The notes: generated by a model from the letters alone, not told the origin. 64,000 bases of DNA from Acidobacteriota bacterium (GCA_040752915.1 JBFMHB010000002.1:13967-77966); one strand, 5' to 3'; shown: positions 15,573 through 36,490, counted from the first letter of the stretch. A program made the numbers and translations.

Positions 15573-18500
15573 CTACGGGCAGGCGCCCGTGGGATCGATG
15601 TGGCGCGGGCCGGCGGATGCGCTTCCGGGGTGACCGTCCCCCCCGGGATTCCAGCCGGTGACGAGGTACCAGAGGACTCCTCCCGGGGCCGCCGCGGGAT
15701 CGTCTGAAAGACCCGTGGCTTCTGGCAATCCGAGGTTGTCCAGGCGTTTGCAGGAATCCAGGCCGCCGTCGAGCAGGGCCGAGAGGTCCGCGAGGACGCC
15801 TCGGTAGAGGTGGTAGTGATAGGCTTCTGTGTTGGAGCCCCATTCCAGGGTCGAATCGTCGGTCCACTTCATGTGGGTGGCCGGAGTGCCCGCGGTTTCG
15901 CCGGGGGCCGCGGCGGGCACGCAGGCGCTCATGGCGCACCCTCCGGGAGCGGTGTAGGTGACCCGAACGTTGTCCACCATCCAGTACCACTCGTAGCTCC
16001 CGTTGTAGTACCGGAACCGCACCTGCGCGTCGGAGGCCCCCGCCGCGCGGCTCGTCAGGTCCAGGGTCTCGTGCTCCGGATTCGCCGTGCTCGCCCCCGT
16101 CCACCGGCCCACGTTCTGCCAGGCCCCCGACGTCCGGCTCGACCGGACGTCCACGTCGCACACCTCGCTCTCGTACCGGTAGAAGTAGTGGTCAAACTCC
16201 AGCGTCACCGTCGTGGCCGCCGATAGGTCCAGCACCGGCGTGATCAACTGCTCGTCTTGTGTCACCCCCCAGCCCGCCTCGTCGCTGTCCACGATGGCGA
16301 AGGGATCCGTGATGGGCGCCGTGGCGTTTCTCCCCCCGGGGTTCGACGTCGTCCACGTGGAGGCCGCGCCCCCTCCAGATCCGCCGTCCACCACCGTCCA
16401 CGTCCCGGGGATCCCCGACCCGAAGTCCTCGTCCAGCGCCGTTCCGGACCCTGGTACGGGCTGGCCCAGCATCACGGAGAAGGTGTCGTCCCAGGCGCCC
16501 TGGTTCGAGACCAGGTGCAGGGAGAAAGTCGCCGACGTACCGCAGGAGACCGAGGGGTCCGCGAAGACCCGGAAGTGGGGCGGATCGGAGGCGCGCTCCT
16601 CCCCGGAGGGAATGTCGGAATAGGATGCCGAATCGACCAGCACGAGGATGCCCGGCGTCGAGGTGGAGAGGCTCCCCAGGACCGCCGTGGCGCCGGAGGT
16701 TCCCACGTTTTCCGCCGTCACGGCAAGGATGGCCTCCTCCCCCGCGTCCCAGACGCCGTCTCCGCCTCCTCCCCCCGAGCCGGTGCAGGCGTCCGTCAGG
16801 AGGTGGGAGGCGTAGGCCAGTTCGGCCCCACAGGACTGGGCGGGGAAGGTGAAGCTCAGGCTCCAGGAATCGATGGTTCCCGTGTCCGAACCTGCGTCGT
16901 CCACGACCTTCAGGCCCCAGTTCCCCGCCGCCACCTGGCCGTCGAAGGCCGACAGGGAGCCCTCGGGACGGAAGGTGCCTGTGAAGGGAGCCGTCCCCCC
17001 CGTGATGGACGAGGAGGCCTCGTCGTCCAGGACCGTCTCCGTGAAGTTCTCGCCCGAGCCGCCGTTGTCGGTGGAGAGTTCGACCTGGGTGCCCTGGGGG
17101 CTCACGAGATAGATGTCCAGATCGCCGTCGTAGGTGTGGGTGATGGAGTGGATGGTCACGTTCACGTCCACGATGACCTTGTCGTCGGGCACGGACAGGA
17201 CCGAGGTCACCCCTGCCGGGTTCGCGTCGGGAATGGCCAGCCCCGGGGTCTCGGTGCGCGTGTAGGTGGGCGCGCTCGTGACGCCCGTCGTAAAGGCGTA
17301 GTAGGCGCCCCCGTTGTCGTCGGAAGAGGAGTTGCCGGCGGGGTCCGCCGAATCCACGGCGTAGTAGTAGCCCCGGCAGGCTTCCAGGGCGCTCAGCGTC
17401 ACCGAGTGAGCCGTCCCGTACGCCGCGTCGGACCCCGTGGAGGAAGGCGGGACGGATGTGCCGTACCGCACGCGCGAGTCGGCGGGCTCGTCCGTGGTCC
17501 ATGTGACGGTCACGTTTTGGCCGCTCACGGAAGCCGAGACGTCGGAGATGACCGGGGCCCGGCAGTCCCCGGAGGCCGTTCCGTCCACGTCGACGTTCGG
17601 GGTCCCGCAGTAGTCCGCGTCCACGTAGCGCACGGTCAGGGTGGCTCCGTCGGTCATGCGGACCTCGGAGGGACCGGGTGTGGACGAATCCGTGGTGGCG
17701 ACGGTGCCCGTGTAGACAGCCGACCCCGGTGGAGTATTGGACAGGGTGAAGCTCTTGTGGCTTCCGTCGGCGGTGGACCAGGCTTCCACCGCAAGGGTGG
17801 CGGGCGAGCCGGGGACGTTCGAATCCACTACGGTCACCCCCACGGAGTCCGTGCACCGGACGACCGCCTTGGACAGGGACACGGATCCCGCGCAGGGCAT
17901 GGGGGTCACCGTCGCGCAGGCGCTCATGGCGCTCACGCAGGAATCGCTTGCGGTCGCGGCCTGCACGCGGTAGAAGTAGGTGATCCCGTTGACAACGGTC
18001 GTGTCCGTGTAGGCGAGGGAGGGGGCGTTCACCGTGGCCACCTTGGTGAACCCCGCGTCGCAGTTCATCTCGTTCCGGTAGATGAAATAGCGCGTCGCGT
18101 TCGGCCCGCCGGAGGTCCAGGTCAGGAGCGCCGAATCGCTCCCCGCGGCCACCGAAGCCGTGGGAACGGTCAGGGAAGGACAGGAGGTCTGGTTCTGGTT
18201 GGTGGCGTCGCCCGCGGACCCGCAGGCGATTCCGTGGCGGGCGAGGCTGGAGTAGATCGCCGCCGCGTGGGGCGTCCCGTTGGCCGTCCCGTCCCCGTCG
18301 TCGTCGAAGGCCCTCATGGTCGAATACAGGCTCCCCCCGTTGCAGCCGTTGGAGGTCGGGGGCGTGCAGGTGTACATGTTGCCCAGAGTGGGCATGCTCG
18401 AATAGAAGAGGCGGTCCGCGAGCTGCCAGGCCGTGGGAAGGTCCAGGCCGCACAGGGCCGGCAGATCCCGGTTCACGAAGTCCCACAGGGCCTGGGTGGA

Positions 18501-20234
18501 GAGGCCCGATTCGCAGTGGTCCTCCCATCCGCAAGGCCCGTTGTAGGAGCCCGACCCGCCGCAGTTCCAAACGCCGCCGGACCCCTGATTTTGCGGGGTC
18601 CACGGCGTCTGGGAGGCGTGCATCATGTAGTCCGCGTCCCGGATCCCCGAACAACCCGTGCAGGCGTCCCCGTAGCCGTCGCAGTTCCCGCTCGTGAAAG
18701 CGCCGCGGCCGGTGCAGGAATCGTGGAGCTGCAGGGTCGCGGTCCAGTCGGCGCGCGTCTCCACGGGCGGGCTGTCTCCCCCCGAACCGTCGTAGTCGTC
18801 CATGCTGTGGCCCCACTCGTGGAGCGACACCCCGGGGATCTCTCCCAGGTTCCAGCACCCCGCGGCGGCCTTGTAGAAATTCAGCGTTCCGCCCCCGGAG
18901 GTTGCGTTGCACCAGGCGTTCTGATTCACGTTCACGTTCATGTGGCTCGAGTTCAGCCAGGTGTTTCCCGGCATGTAGGTCCTGGCTTTGATATTGATGT
19001 TGGTGAGGTGGTAGTACTGGATCTTGGCCGACCACGTGTTGCCGGGACCTCCGGGATTGGGGCTGGGCACTCCGCAGTCCGTGCCCACGCTCTGGCCGTA
19101 GTCCGCGTCGCCCGTCGTGGTCGACAGGCTCGTGGACCCGCACGAGTCGTTGATCCAGGTGTATTTCCCCTGGGTGAGATCCACGGTGGCCGAATCGCCC
19201 GGGAAGAGCCCGCCCACGTCCGCGTAATCGTTGGGTGCCGGCAAATTGGTCCGGACGAAGGGAAAGGGCCGGTCGGAGGGGTTGTTGTGGTTGTCGCCCG
19301 GATAGACCACGCCGTGGACCCGGCCGTAGCGGTTGGCATCGACAAAGCGGACGATCTCCCCCGAATGGGCGTCCACGAGAGCTTCCCACATGCCCACCAC
19401 ACCGGGGCGCCGGAACGAGAGCCGGTAGCAAAGGACGTGGTCGAGGCCCGCTCCCACCTCTCCCTCGTAGCGGTTTGGATCGGCTCCCCGAGGCAGGACG
19501 GGGATCAGGAGCAGGGAGCCCGTGTCGAGAATTTCGTCCTTTTCTCTCGGGAAATCCTGGAGGTACCCGGCCAGAATCTGCCAGGCGGTCTCCAGGCTGA
19601 GGGCGGGCCGCGGGTCCGTCCGGACGGCGGCCACCTTCTCGGTGACCACCTGGATCAGGTTTCCGTTGTTGATCCGGAAACGGATGACCGCCCCCTCCAC
19701 CGGCACGCCCGCGACGACCTGCTGGAAGTTGGCGTAGGCCATGTGGCCCGCCGCCCCCAGGCCGTCCCGGATCGGCACGAACTGGGACGGATCGACCTGG
19801 AAGAGATCCCGGTGGCGCCAGAGGAATTCGAGGGCCAGGGACTCGACGGTGCCGGCGGGCAGGCACTCGGGGTCGGGGCAGGCCATGCCCCATTCCGCCG
19901 GGTCCAGATCGTTCGCCGGCCCCGGAATGAAGGGTATGGCCCCGCCTTCCAAGAGAGAGGGAACGCCGCGACGCAGGTCCATCCACGCGCGCCACTGGCC
20001 CCCCGCCTCCGCGCGCAGGGCTCGCAACCCCTCCGCCTGGGCGGCGGCGCCCTCCAGGAGATCCGCATCCGCCTGGATTTCCACCACCCGAAGCTCGGGC
20101 CGGACGGTGGTCAAATGGTCGAAGGGATGGAGCGGCTCCTTGGCCCTCTGGCTCCACGTGGCGATCGAAACCACGGCGAACCCGGCGAGAAGCGCAACGA
20201 CTGTAAGGCAGGACCGTCTGATGGTGGCGCGCAT
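15573..20234 (-). CDS. Giant secreted HExxH zinc metalloprotease 'C' (1553 aa): signal peptide, FTP/PepSY-like propeptide region, Cys-rich catalytic domain (HEWGH), Fn3 repeats, proprotein-convertase P-domain, MAM-like domain, shared C-terminal domain.
   Basis: GVSLHEWGHSMDD is an HExxH motif. TYDGDLDIYLVSPQGTQVELS...GNWGLKVVDDAGSDTGTIDSWSLSF is P-domain-like. The signal peptide is present. The peptidase family is not resolvable by eye. Confidence 0.75.
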   Translation of the reverse strand: MRATIRRSCLTVVALLAGFAVVSIATWSQRAKEPLHPFDHLTTVRPELRVVEIQADADLLEGAAAQAEGLRALRAEAGGQWRAWMDLRRGVPSLLEGGAIPFIPGPANDLDPAEWGMACPDPECLPAGTVESLALEFLWRHRDLFQVDPSQFVPIRDGLGAAGHMAYANFQQVVAGVPVEGAVIRFRINNGNLIQVVTEKVAAVRTDPRPALSLETAWQILAGYLQDFPREKDEILDTGSLLLIPVLPRGADPNRYEGEVGAGLDHVLCYRLSFRRPGVVGMWEALVDAHSGEIVRFVDANRYGRVHGVVYPGDNHNNPSDRPFPFVRTNLPAPNDYADVGGLFPGDSATVDLTQGKYTWINDSCGSTSLSTTTGDADYGQSVGTDCGVPSPNPGGPGNTWSAKIQYYHLTNINIKARTYMPGNTWLNSSHMNVNVNQNAWCNATSGGGTLNFYKAAAGCWNLGEIPGVSLHEWGHSMDDYDGSGGDSPPVETRADWTATLQLHDSCTGRGAFTSGNCDGYGDACTGCSGIRDADYMMHASQTPWTPQNQGSGGVWNCGGSGSYNGPCGWEDHCESGLSTQALWDFVNRDLPALCGLDLPTAWQLADRLFYSSMPTLGNMYTCTPPTSNGCNGGSLYSTMRAFDDDGDGTANGTPHAAAIYSSLARHGIACGSAGDATNQNQTSCPSLTVPTASVAAGSDSALLTWTSGGPNATRYFIYRNEMNCDAGFTKVATVNAPSLAYTDTTVVNGITYFYRVQAATASDSCVSAMSACATVTPMPCAGSVSLSKAVVRCTDSVGVTVVDSNVPGSPATLAVEAWSTADGSHKSFTLSNTPPGSAVYTGTVATTDSSTPGPSEVRMTDGATLTVRYVDADYCGTPNVDVDGTASGDCRAPVISDVSASVSGQNVTVTWTTDEPADSRVRYGTSVPPSSTGSDAAYGTAHSVTLSALEACRGYYYAVDSADPAGNSSSDDNGGAYYAFTTGVTSAPTYTRTETPGLAIPDANPAGVTSVLSVPDDKVIVDVNVTIHSITHTYDGDLDIYLVSPQGTQVELSTDNGGSGENFTETVLDDEASSSITGGTAPFTGTFRPEGSLSAFDGQVAAGNWGLKVVDDAGSDTGTIDSWSLSFTFPAQSCGAELAYASHLLTDACTGSGGGGGDGVWDAGEEAILAVTAENVGTSGATAVLGSLSTSTPGILVLVDSASYSDIPSGEERASDPPHFRVFADPSVSCGTSATFSLHLVSNQGAWDDTFSVMLGQPVPGSGTALDEDFGSGIPGTWTVVDGGSGGGAASTWTTSNPGGRNATAPITDPFAIVDSDEAGWGVTQDEQLITPVLDLSAATTVTLEFDHYFYRYESEVCDVDVRSSRTSGAWQNVGRWTGASTANPEHETLDLTSRAAGASDAQVRFRYYNGSYEWYWMVDNVRVTYTAPGGCAMSACVPAAAPGETAGTPATHMKWTDDSTLEWGSNTEAYHYHLYRGVLADLSALLDGGLDSCKRLDNLGLPEATGLSDDPAAAPGGVLWYLVTGWNPGGDGHPGSASAGPRHIDPTGACP
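15966..16442. repeat. Copy 2 (in gene C) of the ~480 bp near-identical cassette shared with gene B.
   Basis: See the copy 1 entry. Confidence 0.85.
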
Positions 20235-20481
20235 GAGTCCCCTCCCCGCGAGGCTGCAGGTTCAGCCAGAGAGGGCCCACACGCTATGCGGAACGAGAAT
20301 CCCACCCAGAGGCCCCCGCCCCTCGTAACCCGACAGCTCCGTATAGGATTCTGGTGCCTCCTGGCGAAGATGTCAAGTTCTTGAAACAATAGAGGTTACT
20401 CCGTTCTCAGCATCCTGTCCGGGCAGGAGGGACGCCCCCGCACGCCTGTCCCCCCCATGAAGACCGATGCGGCAAAGCCGA

Positions 20482-20507
20482 AAGGGCGGCCCCGAAAGGC
20501 CGCCCTT
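20482..20507 (-). terminator. Terminator-like hairpin downstream of gene D (perfect 10 bp stem aagggcggcc / ggccgccctt, loop ccgaaa).
   Basis: The inverted repeat was read directly. It lies 53 bp below the D stop on the minus strand. The T-tract is weak. Confidence 0.5.
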
Positions 20508-20559
20508 GCTTCCCGATTTCCGCGAACCGAGGCCCGCCTCGTTCCGCCTCCGCAACTTC

Positions 20560-23500
20560 TTACGGCATGCCGTCGCAGTAGGAATCGGCGGCGCGGGCCA
20601 CGCCTTCCGACGTGGTTCCCAGGGAGCCCTCGGCGCCCGTCCCGTTGTCGGCCGTGACGAGGAAATACAAAACCGATGGCGTGGAGGTGAGGCCCGCCTC
20701 CAGGTCCACATCGCCCACCTGGAGGAGTTCTCCCGCATCCGTCCAGGAGGACCAGAGGCATTCCTTCTTGCCGACGGAGGCGTCGGTCACCTGGAAGGCG
20801 GTGGTCACCGGCGAGGAGGACACGTAGAGCTGGTAGTGGTAGGCCCCCACGTCCTCGAACTCGAGATCCACGAGGCTCCCGTCCTTGGCGGCTTTGAGGT
20901 GGTGGGAGGCGTCGTCGGAGACCTCGGCGGGGGGCGGGCAGAGGGACCAGGTGACGGACGTGGCGGAGGCGTCCTCCGTGTAGCCCGAGCAGCCGTACCC
21001 GGTGACCCGGCAGGTGTAGGAGTGGGCGGCCGCCGAGGAGAAGACCGGGCTGTACGTGGAGCCGGTGGCCCCGGAGACGGGGACACCGTCTTCGATCCAC
21101 TGGTAGGAAAGGGGAGCCGTGCCTCCCGTGGCGGAGGCGGTGAGGGTCACCGGAACCCCCAGGCAGGGCGAAAGGGGGCCCTCGGGAGCGACCGTAACGG
21201 ACGAGGGGTTCGTGCAGGCGCATCCGTCCTTTTCGTTGATGAGGATCCGGATGTCGTCCACGTACCAGCCCTCGGTCCCCGTGCAGCCCGACCAGCACGT
21301 GTAGGTGTACACCACGAACTTGAACCGGAACTGGGTGGCCCCGGCGTAGGCGCTCAGGGGCACGGCCAGTTCGCCCCAGGTCAGGTCTCCCGCGTCGAGG
21401 TAGAAGGATTCGTTCCGGACCCAGGTCGTCCCCCCGTCGGTGGAGATCCACACCCGGGCGCGGCTGTAGCCCGGACAGGGAATGGCGGCCGCGTGCCAAA
21501 AGCGCAGTTCTTTGAGGACGGTGCCCGAGGGGACGGCGATATTGGGACTGATCCAGGATTCCTCGGGGTTCGTGTAGCAGACGTCGGGGGAGGCCTCGGG
21601 CGTGTGGTAGCTGTGGGTGGCGCTGTGGGCGCGATCGGTGGACCAGATCCAGTCCCCGTGGCCGAGGGCCGTGGTGCAGGCGCTCACGCTCCGGGCCGTG
21701 GTCCCCGCCCAGCCGTTGGGGTAAGCCTCGGCGTCGTCGGAGAAGAGGAGGTCCTTGTCGGTGGCCTTGGCGAAGGTCCCCGAAACGGGGGAGATGTTGC
21801 CGCCCGTGAGCGTGTACGAGAAGGTGATGCTCCGGTCCGCGTACCCCGCCGGATCGCAGGCCAGCGTCACCAGGAAACTGCGCTGGGCCGTGGCCCCCGA
21901 GGCGATGTCCCCGAGAAAGACGGTGGGATTGGCGAGGGTCACGGCGGAGGCCGGGATGTCGCTGTCGGCGGCCACCCCCAAGGAGAGATAGACGGCCGTG
22001 GCGGTCTGGCCCGCGCAGGAGGAGTTGAGGGCGCTCACGGTGAGGGTGACGGTCTCCCCGTTGTCGATGTACCCGTCGCCGTCGCCCGAGAGGTCCAGGA
22101 CCGTGCTTCCGGCGTAATCCACGTGGGGCCCCGACACGGACCCGTAGACGTACCCGATGCTCGAGGTCTCGGCCCCGATGCAGCGCACGTCCATCAGGCC
22201 CGAGGTGGTCTCGTTGTTGAGGGCGTTGTTGGGATCCGTCGTGGAGGTGAATTCGGAAGCCCCGTCCTCGTAGGAGAAGGCGGCCCCCGCCGTGCTCGAG
22301 TTGAGGCCGTCGGCGGTGGTCGTGTTCCACCCCTTGCGCTCCACGTTGGCGGCATACGGCGGGTCGTCGCGGAACCCGTTCACATCCCGGTGCCAGACGA
22401 GAAGGCCGAACTCGGGCAGGTAGGGCTCGTAGTAGCCCACGGGCGCGCGGTTCTCAAAGACGAACCACTCGCTGGAGTCGTTGGGGCAGACGGCCCGGTG
22501 CATGACGTTGTCCTGGGCCGCTCCCGAGAGGGCGTCGATGCGGTAGGCCCCTGGATGATGGCTTCCGCCGGAGTACAGGTCCGTCACGTCTGCGGTGAAG
22601 ATCCACCCGTAGCTGTCCGAGGCGTTCTGCAGTTCGATGTCGAACTTGAGGGGCGTCCCCATGTGAGAGGGGTTCGTGCCCGATTTGACCCCGTTGTAAG
22701 AGCCGTTGTCCATGAGGTCCCACTCGCCCGCCACGGTGGCGTCGTAGTCGTAGTCGTAGAGGTCGGGGCCGCCGAGGGTGTGGAAGCCCTCGTGGGCGTA
22801 GACCCCCACGCCGAACCACTTGTCCGTGACGGCGGGCGGGCTCACGCCGCGGTTGAGGGCCGGCTCGAATTCGGGATTGATGGAATACGTATGCCCCCGA
22901 GGGACAGACTTCCCGTCCACGGTGACGGCCGTGTCGATGTTCCACTGGTGAGACCAGATGTGATTCAGGGGATCGGTCACCCCGTCGCAAGATTCTCCGT
23001 AGTGCTCCTGGCCTTCCCTCGCGTGGATGACGAAGATCATGAGTTCGGCGTCGGAGATCGTGCCGTCGCCGTTCGTGTCGTACCGCGCGTAATCCACGTC
23101 GGGCTCGGCGGCCTTGATGGCCCATTCGATGAGATCCTTGATGTTGTTCACGCTGTCGCTGCTGCAAAACCCCATCTTGTACTTGTCCTCCCCCCAGTAG
23201 GCCATGGTCTGGGGGTTGATGTACCAGCCGTCGTTGACCACGGTGCCCGAGCCGGCCCCGTTTTGGGCCACCGTCACGTCCCACTGGAACTGTCCGTAGG
23301 AGACCTCGTCGTAGTAGTGGTTGAGGCCGCCGGGGATGGCCGGGTCCCCGAAGAGGTCCTGCCAGGCGGAGGCATCGTTGGGGCGGCCCGGGATGGGCTC
23401 GTAGCCGGGCTCGCCCGCGATGGGCGTATTCGGCCCCGTGGTGTGGCGGCTCGCCGTGTCGGCGAAGTCCACGAGGATCACGAGGACAGGGAGGCTCAGG

Positions 23501-24018
23501 GGCGTCGGGTTTACGGCCAGGGGCTCCTCGCCGGGGGCCGGGGGCAACCGGTCCGCCCGCGTTCCGAAGCCGCATTCCAGGAACCGCCGCTTCACCGACC
23601 CGTCGTTTTCCGGGCGCAGGGGGATCTTCAGGTCCGATGGGTCCATGCGGGGACGGATGTGCCGGGGCCATCCCTCGGGAACCGCGTCCCGCCCCGCCCG
23701 CAGCCGCGAGGGAGACAGGGCCTCAAGGCCCCCCGTCGCCGGATCGGCGTACACCCAGAAACCCTCCCCGTCCCGGACCAGGGTAAAGCCGTCCTCGGAT
23801 TCGAAGAAGCAGAGGCGCTCGTCCCCCACCATCCGGACCACCACCGGCGTCCCGTCGGGCTGGAACCTCACGTGGGGCTTGGGGTAGGCCTTCACGGCCC
23901 AGACCGCCACCGAGGCCGACAGGGCGCCCGCGGCCGCCGCCGCGAGCGCAAAGTTCTTCCAGGACAAGGATTCACGGAAAAAGGACCGGCCACGCTCCTT
24001 CGGACGCACGTTCCCCAT
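20560..24018 (-). CDS. Giant secreted M6-family (immune inhibitor A / InhA-like) metalloprotease 'D' (1152 aa) with Fn3 repeats and the shared C-terminal domain.
   Basis: VLVILVDFADT, YDTNGDGTISD and YAHEGFHTLGGPDLYD (HExxH) match the InhA-like M6 layout. Signal peptide or TM helix at residues ~20-45. Confidence 0.75.
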   Translation of the reverse strand: MGNVRPKERGRSFFRESLSWKNFALAAAAAGALSASVAVWAVKAYPKPHVRFQPDGTPVVVRMVGDERLCFFESEDGFTLVRDGEGFWVYADPATGGLEALSPSRLRAGRDAVPEGWPRHIRPRMDPSDLKIPLRPENDGSVKRRFLECGFGTRADRLPPAPGEEPLAVNPTPLSLPVLVILVDFADTASRHTTGPNTPIAGEPGYEPIPGRPNDASAWQDLFGDPAIPGGLNHYYDEVSYGQFQWDVTVAQNGAGSGTVVNDGWYINPQTMAYWGEDKYKMGFCSSDSVNNIKDLIEWAIKAAEPDVDYARYDTNGDGTISDAELMIFVIHAREGQEHYGESCDGVTDPLNHIWSHQWNIDTAVTVDGKSVPRGHTYSINPEFEPALNRGVSPPAVTDKWFGVGVYAHEGFHTLGGPDLYDYDYDATVAGEWDLMDNGSYNGVKSGTNPSHMGTPLKFDIELQNASDSYGWIFTADVTDLYSGGSHHPGAYRIDALSGAAQDNVMHRAVCPNDSSEWFVFENRAPVGYYEPYLPEFGLLVWHRDVNGFRDDPPYAANVERKGWNTTTADGLNSSTAGAAFSYEDGASEFTSTTDPNNALNNETTSGLMDVRCIGAETSSIGYVYGSVSGPHVDYAGSTVLDLSGDGDGYIDNGETVTLTVSALNSSCAGQTATAVYLSLGVAADSDIPASAVTLANPTVFLGDIASGATAQRSFLVTLACDPAGYADRSITFSYTLTGGNISPVSGTFAKATDKDLLFSDDAEAYPNGWAGTTARSVSACTTALGHGDWIWSTDRAHSATHSYHTPEASPDVCYTNPEESWISPNIAVPSGTVLKELRFWHAAAIPCPGYSRARVWISTDGGTTWVRNESFYLDAGDLTWGELAVPLSAYAGATQFRFKFVVYTYTCWSGCTGTEGWYVDDIRILINEKDGCACTNPSSVTVAPEGPLSPCLGVPVTLTASATGGTAPLSYQWIEDGVPVSGATGSTYSPVFSSAAAHSYTCRVTGYGCSGYTEDASATSVTWSLCPPPAEVSDDASHHLKAAKDGSLVDLEFEDVGAYHYQLYVSSSPVTTAFQVTDASVGKKECLWSSWTDAGELLQVGDVDLEAGLTSTPSVLYFLVTADNGTGAEGSLGTTSEGVARAADSYCDGMP

Positions 24019-24149: not shown

Positions 24150-24174
24150 CTCCGGTGTTGGACCGACCAGAGCC

Positions 24175-27378: not shown

Positions 27379-27399
27379 AGGATCCTCCCCTTCCCCACT

Positions 27400-29748
27400 T
27401 TACAGGTTTCGACTCTCCAGTAACAGCCGAGAGGCACTTCGAACGTACTTGTTTTCCGACCGGGCCAAACGGGAAAGCGCCTGACCGTCCAGGGTCTCGA
27501 GGAGAGCTTCCGCCCAGGCGAGGACGTCCACTTCCGCATACTGACGCCGGATAGTCTCCGCTCCAGAAACCGCCTTGCCCTGGAAGGCCTCCATTTTCCC
27601 AGGTCTACGCCCCCACAGAGTGCGGTCCAGAAAAACACGATCCTCGGGGCCCGAGACACGCAGAGTCAGGACCTGCACCCAGGCGCGTGCCCGGGGGGGA
27701 GGGTAGGGCGTGGCCCCATCCCTGGAATACCTAACGTCCTGCCAGCGGCTTCTGTAGGAGAGATCCAATCGTCCCAGGACCTCCTCCAAGAGTGGATCGG
27801 CCAACATGCGCTGGAGGGGTACGAGCCTCGACACCGACTCGCCTTCTTTTCGGAGTTCCAGGATTCTCCTTGCCGCATCGTCGGGAGAGACCGGTCCCGA
27901 GGGATCGCCCATCCACTTTCGGAGGAGGCCCGTATCCTCGATTCGGGAGAGTGCGGCGGCCCGAACGGCGGGGTCGCCATCAGTCCTGGCGGTGTCCTCA
28001 AGGACCTCCGGGTCCGAGCATTCAAGCACACCTTCCATGCGTCGTTCCGGATCAGCCTGCCGGTGCAGCCACCCTCTCAGTCCGCCGATCTCGTCCAACC
28101 GCCTGATGGCCGCGACACGAACATCCACATCCGGGTCCATCGAGGCGATCCGGCCCAGCCGATCCAGGTTCCTGATCCGGTCGGCCGCTGCCCGCCGCAC
28201 GACCCAGTCCGCGTCAGATTCTGAGACCCGGCCGATGACCTTCTCGTCGTTGATTCTCCGCAAGGCCGCCAGCCGGACGTGCGGGCTGGCATCCTGGAAC
28301 AGTACCAGCGCAAGAGATTCCTCCGAAACCAGCCGGCTCGCAGCAATGGCGCGCACATTCGGAGACGGATCGGTGGAGGCGGCCGTCCGAAAGAGACTCT
28401 GGTCATCCGAGACTTGGAGGAGGGCGGCGGAACGGACCTCCGGGGACGGGTCGTTGCGAGCGGCCGTTGCGAGGACCGCCTCTTCCCGGATGCGCCGGAT
28501 GGCAGAAGCCCTTACCCGGGGGCTGGCATCTCTCCGAAAAACCTCCACGAGGGACTTGGCGTCGGAGATTCGTGAGACGGCCCGCGCCCGGACCTCCGGT
28601 TCGGAGTCCGAGTAGGCGATTTCCAGGAGAAGCTCCGGCAGATCCAACTGCCCCACGGCCGCTGCCCGAACCCTTCCGTCCGCGTCGGATCGGGCCAAAT
28701 GGGCCCGTGTCTCCTGAGAACGAAGGCCCTCCGCCGCCGCTGCTCGAACCAGGGGATCTTCGTCCGCGACGGCCACGGAACTGAGGAAAACCTGGTCGTC
28801 AATCCGGCGGACGGCTTCCCTTCGAACGACGGCGCTCGCATCCTTCCGGACCAGGACCTTCAGAACCTCCTCCGTCGGAAGCAGCTCCACGGCCTGACGT
28901 CGAGTCTCCGGATCGGGGTGGTCCGCGACCACGTGATCCAAGGCGCCCAATTCTCGAAGCCGCCGAAGAGCGAGGGCCTTCGTCTCCCGATCTTGGCTGC
29001 GGTCCAGGAGCACCTTGAGGTGGTCGGGGTTTGACAACCTGGCGATTGCGAGCATTTTGGGCCGTGATTCGACTTCTTGGAGGACGGCGAGGCGGAGAAA
29101 GGAAGGATTTGAAAGGCCTTTGACGGCCGCCTGTCGAACCTCCACCTCAGGATCCGAGACCGCCGCGTGAAAGCGCGCCTCCTCCGAAAGGAGCCTTTCC
29201 ACGGCGTTTCGGCGAACCACCCAATCGGGATCTCCAAGGGCCGTCTGTTCCAAAAGGGCCTGATCCTGGACCCGGTCAATCGCTTCCGCCCTGAGGAACC
29301 AATCGCCCTCCCGAAGAATGTCCTCCAGAAAGACCGGATCGTGGAGGCGCCGAATGGCTTCCATCCTCGCCCCTTTGCTCGATGCGCATCGGGCCACCCG
29401 CCAGAGATCTTCCTGATCCTTGAGTTGCAAGACGGCGGCTACAGCCTCCATTTCGTCCTGGCTTTGAACGGCAACCGACAAGAGGCCCGAGGGGGAGCCC
29501 TCGGGGATCACCTCTCCCCCGAGGCCATTGGCGTTCGATCCGACCACGGGCGGCATCACCTTCTCGCAAGGTTCAGAAGCCTGAGAGGCCGCTGTCCACC
29601 CAAGCATCAGTCCTGTGCCCCATAGGACCATCAGGGGTAACGTGGAGAACACGATCCCGATCCTCCCACCCCACTGAGCACCCCGGTTCACCATGCCTCC
29701 GCCCGCCTTCCCCAACACCCGCCCCCCTCCCTCTGGGCGACCTCCCAC
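27400..29748 (-). CDS. HEAT-repeat protein (about 14 tandem PBS-lyase-type HEAT-like repeats) with an N-terminal signal peptide or TM segment. It is embedded in the protease array 22 bp upstream of gene E. The start is ambiguous: 29748 or 29694.
   Basis: Recurring ~31 aa units: DPDWVVRRNAVERL, DPEVEVRQAAVKGL, EPEVRARAVSRI, SPRVRASAIRRI, DVDVRVAAIRRL and others. N-terminal hydrophobic stretch FSTLPLMVLWGTGLMLGWTAASQA. Confidence 0.7.
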   Translation of the reverse strand: MGGRPEGGGRVLGKAGGGMVNRGAQWGGRIGIVFSTLPLMVLWGTGLMLGWTAASQASEPCEKVMPPVVGSNANGLGGEVIPEGSPSGLLSVAVQSQDEMEAVAAVLQLKDQEDLWRVARCASSKGARMEAIRRLHDPVFLEDILREGDWFLRAEAIDRVQDQALLEQTALGDPDWVVRRNAVERLLSEEARFHAAVSDPEVEVRQAAVKGLSNPSFLRLAVLQEVESRPKMLAIARLSNPDHLKVLLDRSQDRETKALALRRLRELGALDHVVADHPDPETRRQAVELLPTEEVLKVLVRKDASAVVRREAVRRIDDQVFLSSVAVADEDPLVRAAAAEGLRSQETRAHLARSDADGRVRAAAVGQLDLPELLLEIAYSDSEPEVRARAVSRISDAKSLVEVFRRDASPRVRASAIRRIREEAVLATAARNDPSPEVRSAALLQVSDDQSLFRTAASTDPSPNVRAIAASRLVSEESLALVLFQDASPHVRLAALRRINDEKVIGRVSESDADWVVRRAAADRIRNLDRLGRIASMDPDVDVRVAAIRRLDEIGGLRGWLHRQADPERRMEGVLECSDPEVLEDTARTDGDPAVRAAALSRIEDTGLLRKWMGDPSGPVSPDDAARRILELRKEGESVSRLVPLQRMLADPLLEEVLGRLDLSYRSRWQDVRYSRDGATPYPPPRARAWVQVLTLRVSGPEDRVFLDRTLWGRRPGKMEAFQGKAVSGAETIRRQYAEVDVLAWAEALLETLDGQALSRLARSENKYVRSASRLLLESRNL

Positions 29749-29923: not shown

Positions 29924-32900
29924 CTACTTGTCGCAGTACGCATCTGCCGTGCGGGCCGTGCCGGAGGAGTTGTTCCCCAGGCTCCCCTCCGTTCCGAAGC
30001 CGTTGTCCGCCGTCACCAGGAAGTACAGCACCTGCGTGCTTCCCGTGATCCCGCTTTCCAGATCCACCAGGGACATCCTCAGCATTCCCGGCTCCGCGTC
30101 CGGCGTCCATCCCGCCCACGCGCAGTCCCGCTTTCCGTACTGCGGGTCCGCCACCTGGAACGCCGACGTGTTGGGGCTGTTGGACACGTAGACCTGATAA
30201 TGGCTCGCCGTCACGTCCTCGAAGACGATGTCCGTCGCGCTCCCGTTCTTGTACGCCTTCAGCGGGTGGTCCGCGCTTCCCGACACCTCCCCCGCCATGC
30301 AGGGCGAAATCGTCACCGCGTGGCCCCCCGACGTGCCCGCACACCCCGAGGCGTTCGTGTAAGACACGGTGTAGGTGCCCGACGCGGTGGCCGTATGCGT
30401 CGCGCTGTCCGTGCCCACGGGGCTCCCGTTCAGGTACCACTGGTACCCCGTCATCCCCGATTCGGTGCTGAGATTCACGGTCGAAGCCGGGCAGGTGTTG
30501 GACGAAGCTCCTGAAATGGCCGGCGCGGGCGTGGCGTCCTCGTCCGAAGCCGCGGACCCGCCCGTCTCGGCCTCCATCCCGCACGCGTTCTTGTACCGCA
30601 CGCTGTAGGTGTAGCTCACGCCCGGCAAAGCCGTCGCGTCCGTCACCGACGTCGTCCCGTAGGCCACCTCCGCCTGAAGGACGCTCCCGTCCCGTAGCAC
30701 GTCGTAGGTCCTCGTCCCCGACACGTCGCCCCACGACCCCGGGTCCGCCGGCCAGCTCACCGCAATGCCGTCGTTCGCGCAGGCGCTCGCGTCCACGGCC
30801 GTCACGCTCCCCACCGACGAAGGCGCCGCGCACGACGTGCACGTGCCAACGGTTGTAACGCTCACTTCCACGTCGTCGATAAACCACCCGAGGGATGCCG
30901 TATTGCAGTCGACTATTACGCAGAAGGCGATCCAGACGGTTTTTCCGGCCGCCCCCCCGACATTGCCAGAAATGGCGTTGCAAGCAGCATCCAAGTCCAG
31001 GACCGTATTGACCAGCGTGCTTTGTGTGTCTGTCCAAACAGGCAGTCCAGCCGCATAATCAGGAGGACAGCCGTTCGTTCGAATTGTGTTGGTATAGGTG
31101 TTCTGCAAGATGGCGGCGGAGGGAACCAATGTGTAATTCGAAGCGTCTGTTGAAACGGCCAGCAGTGCTCCGTCATACCGATTCTCAAAGCTCCAGCGAT
31201 GCCAGAAACTCATCCTGGCGGACGTTCCATCCGCGGGCACAGCAATCCCAGAAGCGCCGTTTGGCTGTGCAAAGGTGAAGTGTGAAACCACAGTCGTCAA
31301 GCCCGTGCAGGTGGAGGCTCCGTACCGGAATACGTGAGTCCCACTGCTCGAAGGCGAGCAGGACTGTATCCCACGCCAATCGGTCAACGTTCCGGTACCG
31401 CTAAAATACCCTGTTGTCCAGTCGCTCAGCCCCGAGCCGGATTCAAAATCGTTGAAATACAAGATCGAAGTACTCGCCGTTCCCGGCGCGGCGCCGCGCT
31501 CGGTCGCGTTCGCGTCCTCCAGCCCGTTGACCGTCTCCACCGCCCGCACCACGTAGTAGTACGTCGTCCCGCTCTGGACGCTCGCATCCGTCCACGTCGT
31601 ACCCGTCAAGCCGCTCTCGATCTGGTTCGACGGCCCCGGCGTGAAGCCGCTCGCCGTGTCCCGGTACACGTTGTAGGTCACGCCCCCTCCGCACGAGGAG
31701 GCCGCCGCGCTCCAGGCCAATTGCAGGGAGCACGTGGCCCCCGACACCGCCGTCACGGAAGTCAAACCCGAAAAGGTCGGCGGATTGATGCACGGCGCAG
31801 CGGGCGTCGTGGCCTCCGCGCAGGCGCTGTAGGCCGACTCGCAGACCCCGGACACCGCCGTCACCACGTAGGCGTACGTCGTGCTCCCGCCCGCCGTTCC
31901 GTCGCTGTAGGTGGTGGCGGCCACGGGCCCGCCCGTCGTCAGCTTCGTGTAGGCCCCCTGGGGGCACGTTCCCGTGGCTCGGTACACGTGGTACGCGCTC
32001 GCCCCGCCCACGGGGCCCCAGCTCAGGTCCACGTTGTTGTAGGCCGTAGCCGTGGCCGAGAGCCCCCCCGGCGCCCCCGGCGTCCCGTTCGCGTCCGTCC
32101 CCGCCGTCGCGTTCGACCAGGGCCCCGTGCAGGAGGCGCTCCGTCCCCGCGCCGCATACGTGTGCGAGGCCGTATCCCCCGGCGAGTACACGTAGGGACT
32201 CGTCACGCCCGAGAGCGTCGTCGTCCCGTCCACCAGCAGGTCGTACGCCGTCGCCCCCGCCACCGCGTGCCAGGTGACCTGCACTCCGCTCAGCGCGCAT
32301 GCGCTCACGTCCCCCACCAGCGGCGCCGCCGGCGCCAGGAGGCCGTTCACGTCCGTCCCCGCCGTCGCGCCGGACCACGCTCCCGTGCAGGAAACCGTCC
32401 GGGCCCGCACCGCATAGGTGTGCGAATTGGAGTTCCCCGGCTCGTAGAAATACGGGCTCGTCACACCCGAAATCGTCGTGGCCCCGTCGATCAGGAGATC
32501 GTAGGCCGTCGCTCCCGAGACCGGGCCCCAGGACACGTTCACTCCCGTCAAGGCGCAGGCGTCCGCGTCCGTCACCGCGGGCGCCGAGGGCGTCCCCGGC
32601 GTCCCATTCGCATCCGCGTAGCTTTGGGCGCCGGAATCCGTCGTGCACGTCTCCACCACCGCCTGGACCACGTAGCTGTGGGAGGACGTGTCCCCGGGGT
32701 TGTACAGCGCGCCGGAGGCATACCCCGCCACCGCCACCGACCCGTCTCGCAGCAGGTTGTGGCTCGTGGCTCCGGAACCCGCCGTGTACGACACCCGGAT
32801 CCCGCTCTGCGCGCACCCCGACTCGTCGGCGAATCCCGTGATCTCCGGCGCGCCGGGCGGCGTGCATGAAGTGCCGGTGGTGCACGTGCCGTATCCCGTA

Positions 32901-35900
32901 ATCAAGACATCGTCGATGGCGGCCTCGATCAGACCGCCGACGACGGTCCCGTCGGCCGCGCGCACCCGGATCCGCATGGTCGAAGTCAAGCCGACGTAGT
33001 TCTCCAGTTGGAACGTGACGTTCGTCCATGTGTTGTGGCCGGTTACCGAATCCGGCAACGATTCGAGCTGGACCCACGTGGACCCTCCGTTGTTGGACAC
33101 CTCAAGATAGTAGTAGTCACCCGAATCGTCGTTGGTGTATTCGTTGAGAAACCACCGCCACAGCGAGAGCGTCGCCGAGGCATATCCGGAGGCGTCGAAA
33201 ATGGGCGATGTTGCGATGACCTCCCCGCCGTCCACGTCGTCCGTCCCCGCGGCCCCCGCCGGGTTCGCCGCCGTGTACAGGGAGTTCACGCCGGGGGAGG
33301 CGGTGTGGTCGTCCTCCGGCTGAGATGGCTCACCCAGGTTCCCGGTCGTTCCGACGGGATCTCCGATCACGAAATCACCCGTCGTGGCGGCGGGGGAGCC
33401 CTTCGCGAAGGTCCATCCGAGATTGCCCCCCTCAAAGGTGTCCGAGAAGAGCGTCGCGGAGCCGCCCGTGGGCGTCCCCGACCTCTCCACGAGGTTCCCG
33501 TCCTCGAGGCCGTTCGCCGAATCGTAGGCACGAACGACGTAGTAGTAAGTCGTTCCGTTCGAGAGCCCGACGGAGTCGGTGTAGGAGGTCCCGGTCCACC
33601 CCGCGTAGAGGCGGTTGGAGAAATTCGGGGTGAAGCCGCTCGTCTCCGACCTGTATACGTTGTACGTGACACCCCCCCCGCAGTTCGAGGACCCGGCGGA
33701 CCAGGAGAGTTGCAGGGTACACGTGGCGCCCTGGGAGTTCGTCACGGAAGTGACACCCCCGAAGGCGGGAGGAAGGGTGCATACCCCCGTGGCGGTGGCT
33801 TGGGCGCAGGCGGATTGGAGGGACTCGCATCCGCCCGTCGAATCGACGGCGGAGACCTTGTAGGAGTAGGTCGTGCCCCCGCTCACCGTGGAGTCCGTGT
33901 ACGGGGAGGACGTGAGGCCCGAGGCGATGACGGAGAAGGCCCCCGGCGCGGCGCACGTCCCCACGGCGCGATACACCCTGTAGGTGGCGCCCGCCGGGGT
34001 TCCGGCGCTCCAGGGGATGGTCAACTGGTTGTCGCCCGGAACCGAGACGGTGCCGATGGTCGGCGTCCCCGGGGTGGTGCAGGGAGCGGGCGTAACGGTC
34101 ACGCAGTTGCTCATCGGGCTCACGCAGGCATCGCTGGAGCCGATCGCCTGCACGCGGTAGTAGTAAGTCACACCGTTGGCGAGGGGCGTGTCGGTGAAGG
34201 AGGTGGACGGGGCCATCACGGTGCCGACCTTGGTGTAGCCCGCGTCGCACCCGGTCTCGTTGCGGTAAACGTAGTACTTCGCGGCGTTGGCGACCGTCCC
34301 CCACGAGAGGGAAGCCTGCGTATTGCCGGCCGCCCCCGAGAGAACGGGCGCCACCAACGCGGGGCAGCAGTTGGCCTGGTCCGTATTGACCACCGTCGTG
34401 CAAGCGATCTTGTGGCGGTTGAAGGCGTTGAAGATGGCGCTGGCGTGGGGTGTGCCGTTGCTGAGATCTCCGTCGCAATCGTCCACCACCCGGAAGGTCG
34501 TGAAGTAGTTGCTGGTGGCGCAGCCGTTGGAAGTGGTCAGGGACGGGCAAGCGTAGGCCGAACCGGACGTGGACCGGCTGGCGTACCAGAGGCGGTCCAT
34601 CAGCTGCCATGCCGTGGCCGCATCGAGCCCCCACGCCGTCAGGTCCCGCACGGGGAGATCCCACATCGCCTGCGAGGAGATCAGGGACTCGCAGTGGCCT
34701 TCGTAACCGCAGGGCCCGTCGTAGGAGGGGTTCGTGTCGCAATTGAAGCCGCTGGAATTGTCCAGAAAGGTCGGATCGTACGGCGTGTTGGAGGCGTGCT
34801 TGGCGTAATCGATCTCGCGGATGCCGGAGCAGCTCAGGCAGCAGTCGCCGTACCCGGAGCAGTTGTATCCGACGGTGGTCGTTCCGCACCCCCGGTTCAT
34901 CGTGTAGAAGAACCCGCCGCCGGCGCAGGATCCGTGAGTCTGGAGAACCCCCGAAAAGTCGCCGTAGGTTTCCCCGGTGCCGTTGTCCCCTGCCGGCGAG
35001 CCATCGTTGGAGTCCAGCCCGTGGGCCCATTCGTGGAGAGACACGCCGGGCAGTTCGCCGGTGTTCCAGCAACCTCCGCCGGACCGGAAGAAGTTGATGG
35101 ACGTTCCATCCCAATAGGCGTTGCATGTATCCGAAATGTTGACGTGGTCGGTGATCCTTCCTTGGAGCCACGTATTTCCGGGGAGGTACGTGAAGGCTTT
35201 GATCTTGATCATGGATACGTTGTAATACTGCGTCCGGGAGGCCCTCGTGTTTCCCGCCCCGCCTCCGGGGCTGCTGCAGTCGGTCGCGGCGCTGGTTCCA
35301 AAGTTGATGAGCCCCGAAGCGTCCGAGGCGAGCGAGATGGACCCACAATCGTCCACGATGTCCACGCCGCCCACGTTGCCCGCGCTTCCCGTCCTTCCCG
35401 TCATGGTGCTCGTTCCGCTCGTCCCGGGAAAACTGCCGACGATGTCGGCCCAGGCGGACCCGCTGTAGTCCGCGTAAGGGAACGGCACGATGACTTCGGT
35501 GGCGGGCTGGTCGGTCTTGTACACGCCGCCCTGGATGCTCCCGTAGCGGTTCGCGTCCACGAATTCGAGAAGTTCCCCGTTGTGGGCGTCTACCCTGGCC
35601 TGCCACGTGCCCATCACGCCGGGCCGACGGAAGCTCATTTCATAGACAAGGCGGTATCGGAGGCCCTGTCCCCCCTGGACCAAGACCCGCGAGAGAGTCT
35701 CCGGCGCGGAGACGGGGACGATCAAGAGCCGCCCGGGCTCCAGGACTTGATCTTGCGGCGAAGGCCCGCCGATGAACCCGTACAGGATCTGCCAGGCGGT
35801 CTCGGCGGTGATGGCCGGAAGGGGGTCCAGCCCCCGGATGGCCTCGGGGTTCACGAACTCCTGCCCCACCTGCACCAAGTTCCCGTGATTCAGACGGAAG

Positions 35901-36490
35901 ATGAGGTGGGCCTGATCGACGGGGATGCCGTGGTAGGTCCACTGGAAATTCAAGAAATAGAGGTAGTCGAGGACAGGGCCGGAGCCTTCCGTCACCAATG
36001 CCAGATCGTCGGGCTTCACCCCGAAGAGGTCCGGATAGGCCGCGAGGAACTCCAGAGCGCGACCCGCCACCACTTCCACCGGAACATCCCGCCCTTCCAT
36101 GAACGCCGGCAGCCCCAGGTCATCCCCCTGCAGGGTGTTGGCCGTGCCCGGGATCCATGGAATTCCCCGGCCCTCCAAATGCGCGGGCCGTCCCGTTACC
36201 CGGTCAAAAAGCATGATCCAGCGGCCGCCGCGGTCGGTGAAGAAGCGGTCCCAGTCCCCCAGGACCGGAGCGAGCGCTTCGATTTCCGCCCGGGATGCCC
36301 CGGCCCGGTATTCGTCCACGGAAACCGTCTGGGAGGTGACCCATGTTTCCGGTTTCGCGAAGGACAGGGAATCCAGGAGGTCCTTGTCCTCCTTCACCAC
36401 CTGCGCCGCCACGGCCAGGGGCAGGAGTGTCGCCATGCCGAGACCCAGAAGAAACCGCACGCCCCGCCGCGCCACCCAGCATCCGACCAT
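29924..36490 (-). CDS. Giant secreted HExxH zinc metalloprotease 'F' (2188 aa), a paralogue of C. It has a propeptide-like N-terminus, a Cys-rich catalytic domain (HEWAH), more than 8 Fn3 repeats, two MAM-like domains, and a shared C-terminal domain ending YCDK.
   Basis: GVSLHEWAHGLDSNDG aligns with the catalytic region of C. Signal peptide MVGCWVARRGVRFLLGLGMATLLPLAVAAQ. Repeated ~95 aa Fn3-like modules (...TYRVYRA..., ...YNVYRSE...). Confidence 0.75.
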   Translation of the reverse strand: MVGCWVARRGVRFLLGLGMATLLPLAVAAQVVKEDKDLLDSLSFAKPETWVTSQTVSVDEYRAGASRAEIEALAPVLGDWDRFFTDRGGRWIMLFDRVTGRPAHLEGRGIPWIPGTANTLQGDDLGLPAFMEGRDVPVEVVAGRALEFLAAYPDLFGVKPDDLALVTEGSGPVLDYLYFLNFQWTYHGIPVDQAHLIFRLNHGNLVQVGQEFVNPEAIRGLDPLPAITAETAWQILYGFIGGPSPQDQVLEPGRLLIVPVSAPETLSRVLVQGGQGLRYRLVYEMSFRRPGVMGTWQARVDAHNGELLEFVDANRYGSIQGGVYKTDQPATEVIVPFPYADYSGSAWADIVGSFPGTSGTSTMTGRTGSAGNVGGVDIVDDCGSISLASDASGLINFGTSAATDCSSPGGGAGNTRASRTQYYNVSMIKIKAFTYLPGNTWLQGRITDHVNISDTCNAYWDGTSINFFRSGGGCWNTGELPGVSLHEWAHGLDSNDGSPAGDNGTGETYGDFSGVLQTHGSCAGGGFFYTMNRGCGTTTVGYNCSGYGDCCLSCSGIREIDYAKHASNTPYDPTFLDNSSGFNCDTNPSYDGPCGYEGHCESLISSQAMWDLPVRDLTAWGLDAATAWQLMDRLWYASRSTSGSAYACPSLTTSNGCATSNYFTTFRVVDDCDGDLSNGTPHASAIFNAFNRHKIACTTVVNTDQANCCPALVAPVLSGAAGNTQASLSWGTVANAAKYYVYRNETGCDAGYTKVGTVMAPSTSFTDTPLANGVTYYYRVQAIGSSDACVSPMSNCVTVTPAPCTTPGTPTIGTVSVPGDNQLTIPWSAGTPAGATYRVYRAVGTCAAPGAFSVIASGLTSSPYTDSTVSGGTTYSYKVSAVDSTGGCESLQSACAQATATGVCTLPPAFGGVTSVTNSQGATCTLQLSWSAGSSNCGGGVTYNVYRSETSGFTPNFSNRLYAGWTGTSYTDSVGLSNGTTYYYVVRAYDSANGLEDGNLVERSGTPTGGSATLFSDTFEGGNLGWTFAKGSPAATTGDFVIGDPVGTTGNLGEPSQPEDDHTASPGVNSLYTAANPAGAAGTDDVDGGEVIATSPIFDASGYASATLSLWRWFLNEYTNDDSGDYYYLEVSNNGGSTWVQLESLPDSVTGHNTWTNVTFQLENYVGLTSTMRIRVRAADGTVVGGLIEAAIDDVLITGYGTCTTGTSCTPPGAPEITGFADESGCAQSGIRVSYTAGSGATSHNLLRDGSVAVAGYASGALYNPGDTSSHSYVVQAVVETCTTDSGAQSYADANGTPGTPSAPAVTDADACALTGVNVSWGPVSGATAYDLLIDGATTISGVTSPYFYEPGNSNSHTYAVRARTVSCTGAWSGATAGTDVNGLLAPAAPLVGDVSACALSGVQVTWHAVAGATAYDLLVDGTTTLSGVTSPYVYSPGDTASHTYAARGRSASCTGPWSNATAGTDANGTPGAPGGLSATATAYNNVDLSWGPVGGASAYHVYRATGTCPQGAYTKLTTGGPVAATTYSDGTAGGSTTYAYVVTAVSGVCESAYSACAEATTPAAPCINPPTFSGLTSVTAVSGATCSLQLAWSAAASSCGGGVTYNVYRDTASGFTPGPSNQIESGLTGTTWTDASVQSGTTYYYVVRAVETVNGLEDANATERGAAPGTASTSILYFNDFESGSGLSDWTTGYFSGTGTLTDWRGIQSCSPSSSGTHVFRYGASTCTGLTTVVSHFTFAQPNGASGIAVPADGTSARMSFWHRWSFENRYDGALLAVSTDASNYTLVPSAAILQNTYTNTIRTNGCPPDYAAGLPVWTDTQSTLVNTVLDLDAACNAISGNVGGAAGKTVWIAFCVIVDCNTASLGWFIDDVEVSVTTVGTCTSCAAPSSVGSVTAVDASACANDGIAVSWPADPGSWGDVSGTRTYDVLRDGSVLQAEVAYGTTSVTDATALPGVSYTYSVRYKNACGMEAETGGSAASDEDATPAPAISGASSNTCPASTVNLSTESGMTGYQWYLNGSPVGTDSATHTATASGTYTVSYTNASGCAGTSGGHAVTISPCMAGEVSGSADHPLKAYKNGSATDIVFEDVTASHYQVYVSNSPNTSAFQVADPQYGKRDCAWAGWTPDAEPGMLRMSLVDLESGITGSTQVLYFLVTADNGFGTEGSLGNNSSGTARTADAYCDK

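Follow-up and report, generated by a model that had tools for sequence, protein, structure and literature searches.

Two paralogous, probably secreted metalloproteases of an Acidobacteriota bacterium and their thermolysin-fold family, which is missed by the M4 and M36 sequence models

The described peptidases closest to the proteins reported here belong to families M4 and M36. M4 includes thermolysin, vibriolysin MCP-02, pseudolysin (LasB), aureolysin, ProA and protealysin, and M36 includes fungalysin and the large bacterial proteins for which NCBIfam holds T9SS-, rhombosortase- and myxosortase-dependent models (NF038113, NF038111 and NF038112). In thermolysin H142 and H146 are two of the zinc ligands and E143 is the catalytic base, E166 is the third zinc ligand and D170 the Asp of the ExxxD motif, N112-A113 of the NAFW strand bind the substrate backbone, R203 binds substrate and H231 stabilises the transition state. 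Here we analysed a 64,000-nucleotide stretch of DNA from an Acidobacteriota bacterium (GCA_040752915.1 JBFMHB010000002.1:13967-77966), referred to as the window, with a high GC content of ~67%. Coordinates are counted from its first letter. Two of its genes, C and F, are the subject of this work:

15573-20234, minus strand, gene C: intact open reading frame (ORF) of 1553 amino acids (aa), a thermolysin-like zinc metalloprotease in prepro form, with a long tail of several domains
29924-36490, minus strand, gene F: intact ORF of 2188 aa, paralogue of C

We consider it highly likely that the paralogues C and F are zymogens of secreted thermolysin-fold zinc endopeptidases (gluzincins, of the clan MA(E) type) and that they belong to a large, nearly Acidobacteriota-confined family that is homologous to M4 and M36 and missed by the models of both. 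Compared by BLASTP, the two proteins shared 356/810 identities (44%, E = 0) over a stretch that takes in the signal peptide, the propeptide, the catalytic region and the whole first Fn3 domain, and their catalytic domains were 49% identical. HExxH occurs once in each protein, as HEWGH at C 472-476 and as HEWAH at F 486-490. The initial annotation had described the pair as paralogous HExxH metalloproteases, and this is borne out by the alignment. The motifs it quoted were found as well (ETAWQIL(A/Y)G(Y/F), CGST/CGSI, DCG/DCS, GCWN(L/T)GE(I/L)PGVSLHEW(G/A)H, SC(T/A)G... and CSGIR(D/E)(A/I)DY), except that C has CDGYGD instead of CSGYGD. The conserved part of the two proteins is laid out as follows:

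20157-20234, minus strand, C signal peptide, aa ~1-26 (MRATIRRSCLTVVALLAGFAVVSIA): basic n-region then hydrophobic core, read by eye, boundary approximate
19332-20156, minus strand, C propeptide of the FTP + PepSY type, aa ~27-301: from structure prediction, Foldseek, hhalign and a sub-threshold Pfam FTP match
18216-19331, minus strand, C catalytic domain with thermolysin fold and 14 conserved Cys, aa 302-673: from structure prediction, Foldseek and hhalign
18807-18821, minus strand, C HEWGH (H472, E473, H476): the two zinc-binding His and the Glu that serves as catalytic base, invariant in 145 homologues
18747-18761, minus strand, C ETRAD (E492...D496): gluzincin ExxxD motif, with its Glu as third zinc ligand and its Asp
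18516-18518, minus strand, C H573 (in EDHCES): equivalent of thermolysin His231, aligned to thermolysin GGVH, 145/145
35549-36403, minus strand, F propeptide, aa ~30-314: aligns to the C propeptide (phmmer 3.1e-50), with sub-threshold PepSY and T9SS-M36 propeptide matches
34394-35548, minus strand, F catalytic domain, aa 315-699
35021-35035, minus strand, F HEWAH, by residue mapping
34970-34972, minus strand, F E507, third zinc ligand, by residue mapping
34694-34696, minus strand, F H599, counterpart of C H573, by residue mapping

The catalytic domain of C was modelled with AlphaFold2 from the family alignment, giving a predicted local distance difference test score (pLDDT) of 87.5 and a predicted template modelling score of 0.89. 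Foldseek with this model against the PDB returned 29 matches at E <= 1e-3, all of them M4 or M36 and all with a probability of 1.0, and the next match had an E of 0.25. The M4 matches (E 4.5e-10 to 1e-6) were to vibriolysin MCP-02 (the best, 4.5e-10), PlM4P, ProA, LasB, aureolysin, thermolysin, gentlyase, the B. cereus neutral protease and protealysin, and the M36 matches were weaker, to three fungal enzymes (7qfy, 4k90 and 7z6t) at E ~1e-6. The structural alignments spanned the whole domain, over ~380-440 columns, with a target-normalised template modelling score of 0.53-0.70 and 10-14% identity. The predicted structure has the two lobes of the thermolysin fold, with an N-terminal beta-rich lobe, the active-site helix and a C-terminal helical lobe. 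The propeptide of C was also modelled (pLDDT 86.6) and matched the YpeB PepSY domain (5boi, 4.4e-7) and two propeptides, that of fungalysin (4k90_B, 5.6e-5) and that of vibriolysin (3nqy_A, 6.7e-5). The N-terminal region, which had been called propeptide-like, resembles the propeptides of both M4 and M36 and has the FTP + PepSY organisation of M4; the Pfam FTP and PepSY matches of C and F were sub-threshold.

The family was further compared with M4 at the profile level using hhalign. An alignment of the family propeptide and catalytic domain (135 sequences) against 120 prepro-M4 sequences gave a probability of 97% (E 8.8e-11) over 471 collinear columns, in which C 80-669 corresponds to prepro-thermolysin 32-549. 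Over the propeptide, the probability was 93.9% against a single prepro-thermolysin sequence, and local alignment to the single sequence of mature thermolysin reached just 50%. The thermolysin reference sequence was checked against the PDB, with 316/316 residues aligned and one known variant position. These profile-profile comparisons covered M4 precursors and, as a control, the M6 protease encoded in the window, for which the probability was 0.65%. Together these data indicate that the family is a remote homologue of M4 and M36 with their full zymogen architecture, and the catalytic region is no longer of unresolved family as first described: it has a whole-domain structural match to M4, a weaker one to M36, a collinear profile-profile match, a complete set of zinc ligands and most of the catalytic residues. 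A relationship to M6 was considered and rejected, with no PF05547 match and the hhalign value given above.

The active site was examined by residue mapping. The initial annotation had proposed aligning the HExxH region with M4, M36 and M6 to find the third zinc ligand, and the alignment with M4 identified it as the Glu of ExxxD, E492 in C (18759-18761) and E507 in F. The hhalign alignment gave the following equivalences between C and thermolysin:

C442-N443-A444, thermolysin N112-A113
H472, E473 and H476, thermolysin H142, E143 and H146
E492 and D496, thermolysin E166 and D170
R532, thermolysin R203
H573, thermolysin H231

In a 25-sequence alignment the gluzincin signature was evident, with HExxH, an Asp at the second His+3, a Glu ~16 residues downstream and an Asp at Glu+4 (ExxxD). 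Across 145 homologues H472, E473, H476, D479, E492 and H573 were invariant (145/145, C numbering), D496 and R532 were each present in 144/145, N443 in 138/145 and A444 in 140/145. The two His and two Glu of the gluzincin signature are without exception in the family, and the ExxxD Asp is nearly so. This conservation also bears on whether C and F could be non-catalytic adhesins or pseudo-proteases that keep the fold alone. Their very long tails are adhesin-like (Fn3, MAM-like and P-domain) and the catalytic domain makes up < 1/4 of each protein. However, no zinc ligand varies and neither does the catalytic base, and the D170, R203 and H231 equivalents are kept in >= 144/145 sequences that are only ~24-40% identical, a degree of conservation that is not expected without catalysis. 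We regard this reading as very improbable and reject it.

As a zymogen of the thermolysin type, each protein would be exported by a Sec signal peptide, and the N-termini of both C and F read as signal peptides. By analogy with M4 and M36 the FTP/PepSY-type propeptide would act as folding chaperone and inhibitor and would be removed autocatalytically. In the mature enzyme zinc would be held by both His of HEW(G/A)H and by the ExxxD Glu (E492 in C, E507 in F), which lies 13-20 residues downstream, with the HExxH Glu activating the water. The invariant His (H573 in C, H599 in F) and the Arg (R532 in C) would take the parts of thermolysin His231 and Arg203, and the C-N-A edge strand (C 442-444) would bind the substrate backbone as Asn112-Ala113 do. 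In the long tails, the beta-domains (Fn3, P-domain, MAM-like and others) probably serve in substrate binding or cell-surface retention. The DDDDGNLxNGTPH loop might conceivably correspond to a calcium site, which its sequence resembles. There is no new catalytic mechanism here.

Recognition by sequence was assessed using Pfam, NCBIfam and PDB sequences as proxies for the MEROPS families. On C, Pfam detected the P-domain, one Fn3-like match and a sub-threshold FTP, and NCBIfam detected choice-of-anchor J. On F, Pfam gave weak fn3 and PepSY matches and NCBIfam gave fragments of M36 models in the propeptide and accessory domain only, at 17-36 bits vs cut-offs of 885-1700. The M6 model PF05547 and the M36 model PF02128 matched neither protein. 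The M4, M36 and M6 sequence models thus miss the catalytic domain, and since no Pfam or NCBIfam model matches this region, the trouble that the initial annotation had in placing it was real. Homologues showed sub-threshold matches to PepSY, FTP, Peptidase_M4, M4_C and M36. The M4 models PF01447/PF02868 matched below threshold in 6/25 homologues and in 2/45 diverse representatives, PF02128 matched 1/25 homologues (P0032, 2.6e-6) and 0/45 representatives, and among the same 45 PepSY was found in 13 and FTP in 4.

Several observations weigh against a thermolysin-fold assignment. The structural evidence comes from predicted structures, not solved ones. The catalytic region of C and F (~300-700) had no match to any Pfam or NCBIfam model at E <= 0.1, phmmer with C 1-688 against all PDB sequences found nothing at E <= 10, and the family profile found Fn3 chains and no M4 chain among PDB sequences at E <= 10; taken together, what C and the profile retrieved from the PDB sequences was limited to Fn3 matches and an insignificant HExxH match to M13. 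The spacer from His to Glu is 13-20 residues in the family (mode 15) vs 19 as read from the thermolysin sequence, and no equivalent of thermolysin Tyr157 was found in the family alignment because the segment from HExxH to the Glu is shorter. Finally, a C-x-x-C (C525/C528) with two nearby Cys is a possible second metal site.

Within the thermolysin fold, C and F could be plain divergent members of M4 with no separate family needed, as the best structural matches are all M4, the 97% hhalign match runs over the whole prepro unit and some homologues give sub-threshold PF01447/PF02868 matches. We think this unlikely, given that C and F themselves have no PF01447/PF02868 match at E <= 0.1, the family profile retrieves no M4 chain, structural-alignment identity is 10-14%, the ligand spacer differs, the 14 conserved Cys are absent from thermolysin and an Fn3 nearly always follows the catalytic domain. 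Significance with M4 was reached by profile-profile comparison and by no other sequence comparison. That C and F are instead bacterial M36 (fungalysin-family) proteins, akin to the large sortase-dependent M36 proteins of NCBIfam, appears improbable. The PF02128 match of P0032, the M36 structures at ~1e-6, the fungalysin propeptide match, and the partial matches of the F propeptide and a MAM-like domain to the M36 models for T9SS-, rhombosortase- and myxosortase-dependent proteins all point that way. However, over the catalytic domain neither C, F nor any of the 45 diverse representatives is recognised by PF02128, the NCBIfam M36 matches are confined to propeptide and accessory domains far below their cut-offs, and Foldseek places M36 below M4. 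As sequence-based tests placed C and F in neither M4 nor M36, we file the family as a thermolysin-fold gluzincin family of its own, one that would work like M4 and yet is not demonstrably a member of M4.

The catalytic domain had been described as Cys-rich, and this was confirmed in the family alignment, in which 14 Cys columns are conserved at 84-100%; thermolysin is without Cys. The Cys tend to go missing in pairs (558/623, 631/671 and 518/525, C numbering), and pairwise loss in an exported protein fits disulfides. The 14 conserved Cys probably form ~7 disulfides that would stabilise the enzyme outside the cell. The four Cys C507, C518, C525 and C528 lie within 22 residues and include the C-x-x-C, suggesting that this cluster might bind a second, structural metal ion and form no disulfides. 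We consider this doubtful, as one subclade lacks both C518 and C525, which would be expected of disulfide partners, the columns 558/623 and 631/671 are lost in pairs too, the total of 14 is even and the protein is predicted to be extracellular.

The extent of the family was assessed with sequence searches of increasing depth. Searching a word index for the C catalytic region turned up 75 relatives, most of them without a name or called "hypothetical protein", a few called "endopeptidase" and individual ones named after accessory domains. An exhaustive profile search of 1.84 billion representatives found 2608 proteins at E <= 1e-30, a count that is inflated because the search profile included an Fn3 domain. 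Among the 150 best matches 144 had the catalytic domain, with lengths of 733-4458 aa, so that the family comprises at least 144 clusters at 50% identity. A core of propeptide, catalytic domain and first Fn3 was conserved in 137-142 of these 144 representatives (the first Fn3 in 137/144), and the tail domains were shuffled, with a P-domain in 20/144 and choice-of-anchor J in 8/144. A one-genome-per-species scan confirmed at least 428 copies, up to five or more per genome, and several copies per genome and tandem pairs were common. The best 80 of these at least 428 copies came nearly all from metagenome-assembled genomes (MAGs) of Acidobacteriota (Thermoanaerobaculia, Holophagae, Aminicenantes and Fischerbacteria), with one from an Eiseniibacteriota MAG. 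An exact look-up of protein C in public assemblies gave no record. Among the matches listed, C was closest to a fragment in a JGI metagenome (91% identity) and to a copy in a Holophagae MAG (65% identity), with which synteny was not conserved. A search of the literature on the HEWGH motif, Thermoanaerobaculia peptidases and Acidobacteria thermolysin/fungalysin found no description of the family.

For the closest genomic relative of C, on contig_12396 of the Holophagae MAG (L080 10001-15024), the gene call is in two pieces, of 645 and 981 aa, probably owing to a frameshift in a long-read assembly. Several database homologues, such as P0054 and P0010, also look frameshifted, suggesting that public gene calls for the family are often fragmented.

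Beyond the conserved core the two proteins diverge into tails with the following features:

17889-18182, minus strand, C first Fn3, aa 685-782: part of the conserved family core, its profile matching the PDB Fn3-like protein 3mpc
16851-17168, minus strand, C P-domain of the proprotein-convertase type, aa 1023-1128: PF01483, E 4.8e-16
15945-16448, minus strand, C choice-of-anchor-J / MAM-like domain, aa 1263-1430: NF038128, E 1.9e-10
15576-15929, minus strand, C C-terminal domain of ~118 aa ending ...GACP: shared with five neighbouring secreted proteins, no Pfam match
30314-34366, minus strand, F tail with ~9 Fn3-like modules and two MAM-like domains, aa 709-2059: from phmmer modules, a tandem repeat and InhA-like_MAM
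29927-30313, minus strand, F C-terminal domain ending ...AYCDK, aa 2060-2188: matches the C-terminal end of the M6 protein encoded nearby (phmmer 1.1e-43)

The P-domain of C, noted from the start, clears the Pfam gathering score (59.1 bits vs a cut-off of 21). That such a domain is unusual outside subtilases, as had been added, carries little weight here, since 20 of the 144 family representatives have a homologous P-domain. The claim of more than 8 Fn3 modules in F is approximately right: six were found by phmmer at E <= 0.005, further ones were weaker, and an 86-aa unit is repeated, with the Pfam fn3 model reaching just 1.8e-7 on F overall. For both of the domains called MAM-like in F the InhA-like_MAM matches were sub-threshold (E 0.0067 and 0.081), and the second resembles an accessory domain of the NCBIfam large bacterial M36 model NF038111 (2e-9). 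The repeat in F is a tandem 258-nt (86-aa) unit at 32061-32576 (aa ~1306-1477) with 73% DNA identity that encodes Fn3-like modules; two copies were found by DNA and a third was read by eye in the translation.

C and F sit in a co-directional minus-strand cluster of ~29 kb encoding large proteins, most with signal-peptide-like N-termini. Their neighbours are:

10245-12506, minus strand, 753-aa protein, no Pfam match
12638-15535, minus strand, M28 peptidase
20560-24018, minus strand, M6 / InhA-like peptidase
24175-27378, minus strand, ORF E, 1067 aa, with Fn3 and an InhA-like MAM domain (2.8e-17) and a signal-peptide-like N-terminus
27400-29748, minus strand, HEAT-repeat protein
36845-39676, minus strand, BNR-repeat protein

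The cluster looks like a protein-scavenging island, and the presence of other large secreted peptidases (M28 and M6) in it is in keeping with the reading of C and F as secreted proteases. No recognised catalytic domain was found in the first ~540 residues of ORF E and no HExxH, and ORF E may be another unrecognised hydrolase. Three accessory domains of C recur in the 753-aa protein (the second Fn3-like one, the one at aa 1136-1262 and choice-of-anchor J), which is further evidence of module shuffling in the cluster. The choice-of-anchor-J domain is also shared with the M28 protein, where C aa 1263-1425 (15960-16448) and M28 aa 659-821 (13073-13561) are ~98% identical in protein, with 97% DNA identity reported over 300 nt and unrelated flanks. 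A near-identical domain between unrelated flanks suggests that a segment the size of the domain was duplicated, or transferred by gene conversion, between the neighbours very recently.

A related C-terminal domain of ~110-130 aa was observed in six large, probably secreted proteins of different catalytic classes:

10245-~10600, minus strand, copy in the 753-aa protein
12638-~13030, minus strand, copy in the M28 protein
15576-15929, minus strand, copy in C
20560-~20950, minus strand, copy in the M6 protein
24175-~24570, minus strand, copy in ORF E
29927-30313, minus strand, copy in F

The copies share the pattern ...Y-x-(L/V)-Y ... (W/Y)(W/F)xLV ... E(G/S)xxG..S.G..R ... C, followed by 0-3 residues (CP, CDK), and the domain had no Pfam match at E <= 1. 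It is present in 27 of the 144 family representatives, and 26/30 domain matches lie <= 11 residues from the protein end. It may be a so far undescribed domain for secretion, sorting or anchoring.

The initial annotation had itself held that a confident match to a well-described peptidase family with all ligands accounted for would make these proteins not novel, and because such structural and profile matches were found, most of the novelty is removed. What is left is a large Acidobacteriota clade that is uncurated and structurally embellished, that is, a gap in annotation rather than an enzyme of a new kind. A bolder proposal, which we put forward tentatively as a possibility, is that the clade is a new thermolysin-fold family at the MEROPS level and the principal family of extracellular metalloproteases in Thermoanaerobaculia, Holophagae and related Acidobacteriota, invisible to Pfam/NCBIfam surveys. 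Its catalytic domain would be held by ~7 disulfides, and its members, along with the unrelated hydrolases of the cluster, would be routed or anchored by the undescribed, strictly C-terminal ~115-aa Cys-Pro domain acting as a secretion/sorting tag. The family mostly carries the label "hypothetical protein" in public records and is missed by Pfam and NCBIfam and probably also by MEROPS-based surveys. Extracellular peptidase counts in MAGs serve to infer protein degradation in soils and sediments, and with the family missed by the models those for Acidobacteriota MAGs are probably too low. As a natural thermolysin scaffold in which the ligand loop is shortened and many Cys are conserved, the family may also interest protease engineers.

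Compared with the known systems, the family is most like M4, with which it shares the two-lobe fold, the collinear order of signal peptide, FTP/PepSY propeptide and catalytic domain, the HExxH and ExxxD Glu ligands and the N112/A113, D170, R203 and H231 equivalents. It differs from M4 in its 10-14% identity, in staying below the PF01447/PF02868 thresholds, in a shorter spacer with no Tyr157 equivalent identified, in an invariant Asp at His+3, in the DDDDGNLxNGTPH loop, in 14 conserved Cys where thermolysin has none, in the Fn3 that nearly always comes after the catalytic domain and in long variable tails. With M36 it shares the fold and propeptide type, and with the large bacterial M36 proteins (NF038113, NF038111 and NF038112) the overall plan, in which a very large secreted protease is built of many domains and includes MAM-like accessory ones. 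Its catalytic region, however, is unrecognised by PF02128 and the NCBIfam M36 models, and C and F have no recognisable PEP-CTERM, GlyGly-CTERM, MYXO-CTERM or T9SS tail, ending instead in the unannotated ~115-aa domain with Cys-Pro or similar. M6 (immune inhibitor A, represented by the neighbour at 20560-24018) resembles the family in HExxH, large size and secretion, and the M6 protein and F have the C-terminal domain in common, whereas the catalytic and propeptide regions are without detectable relationship (hhalign 0.65%).

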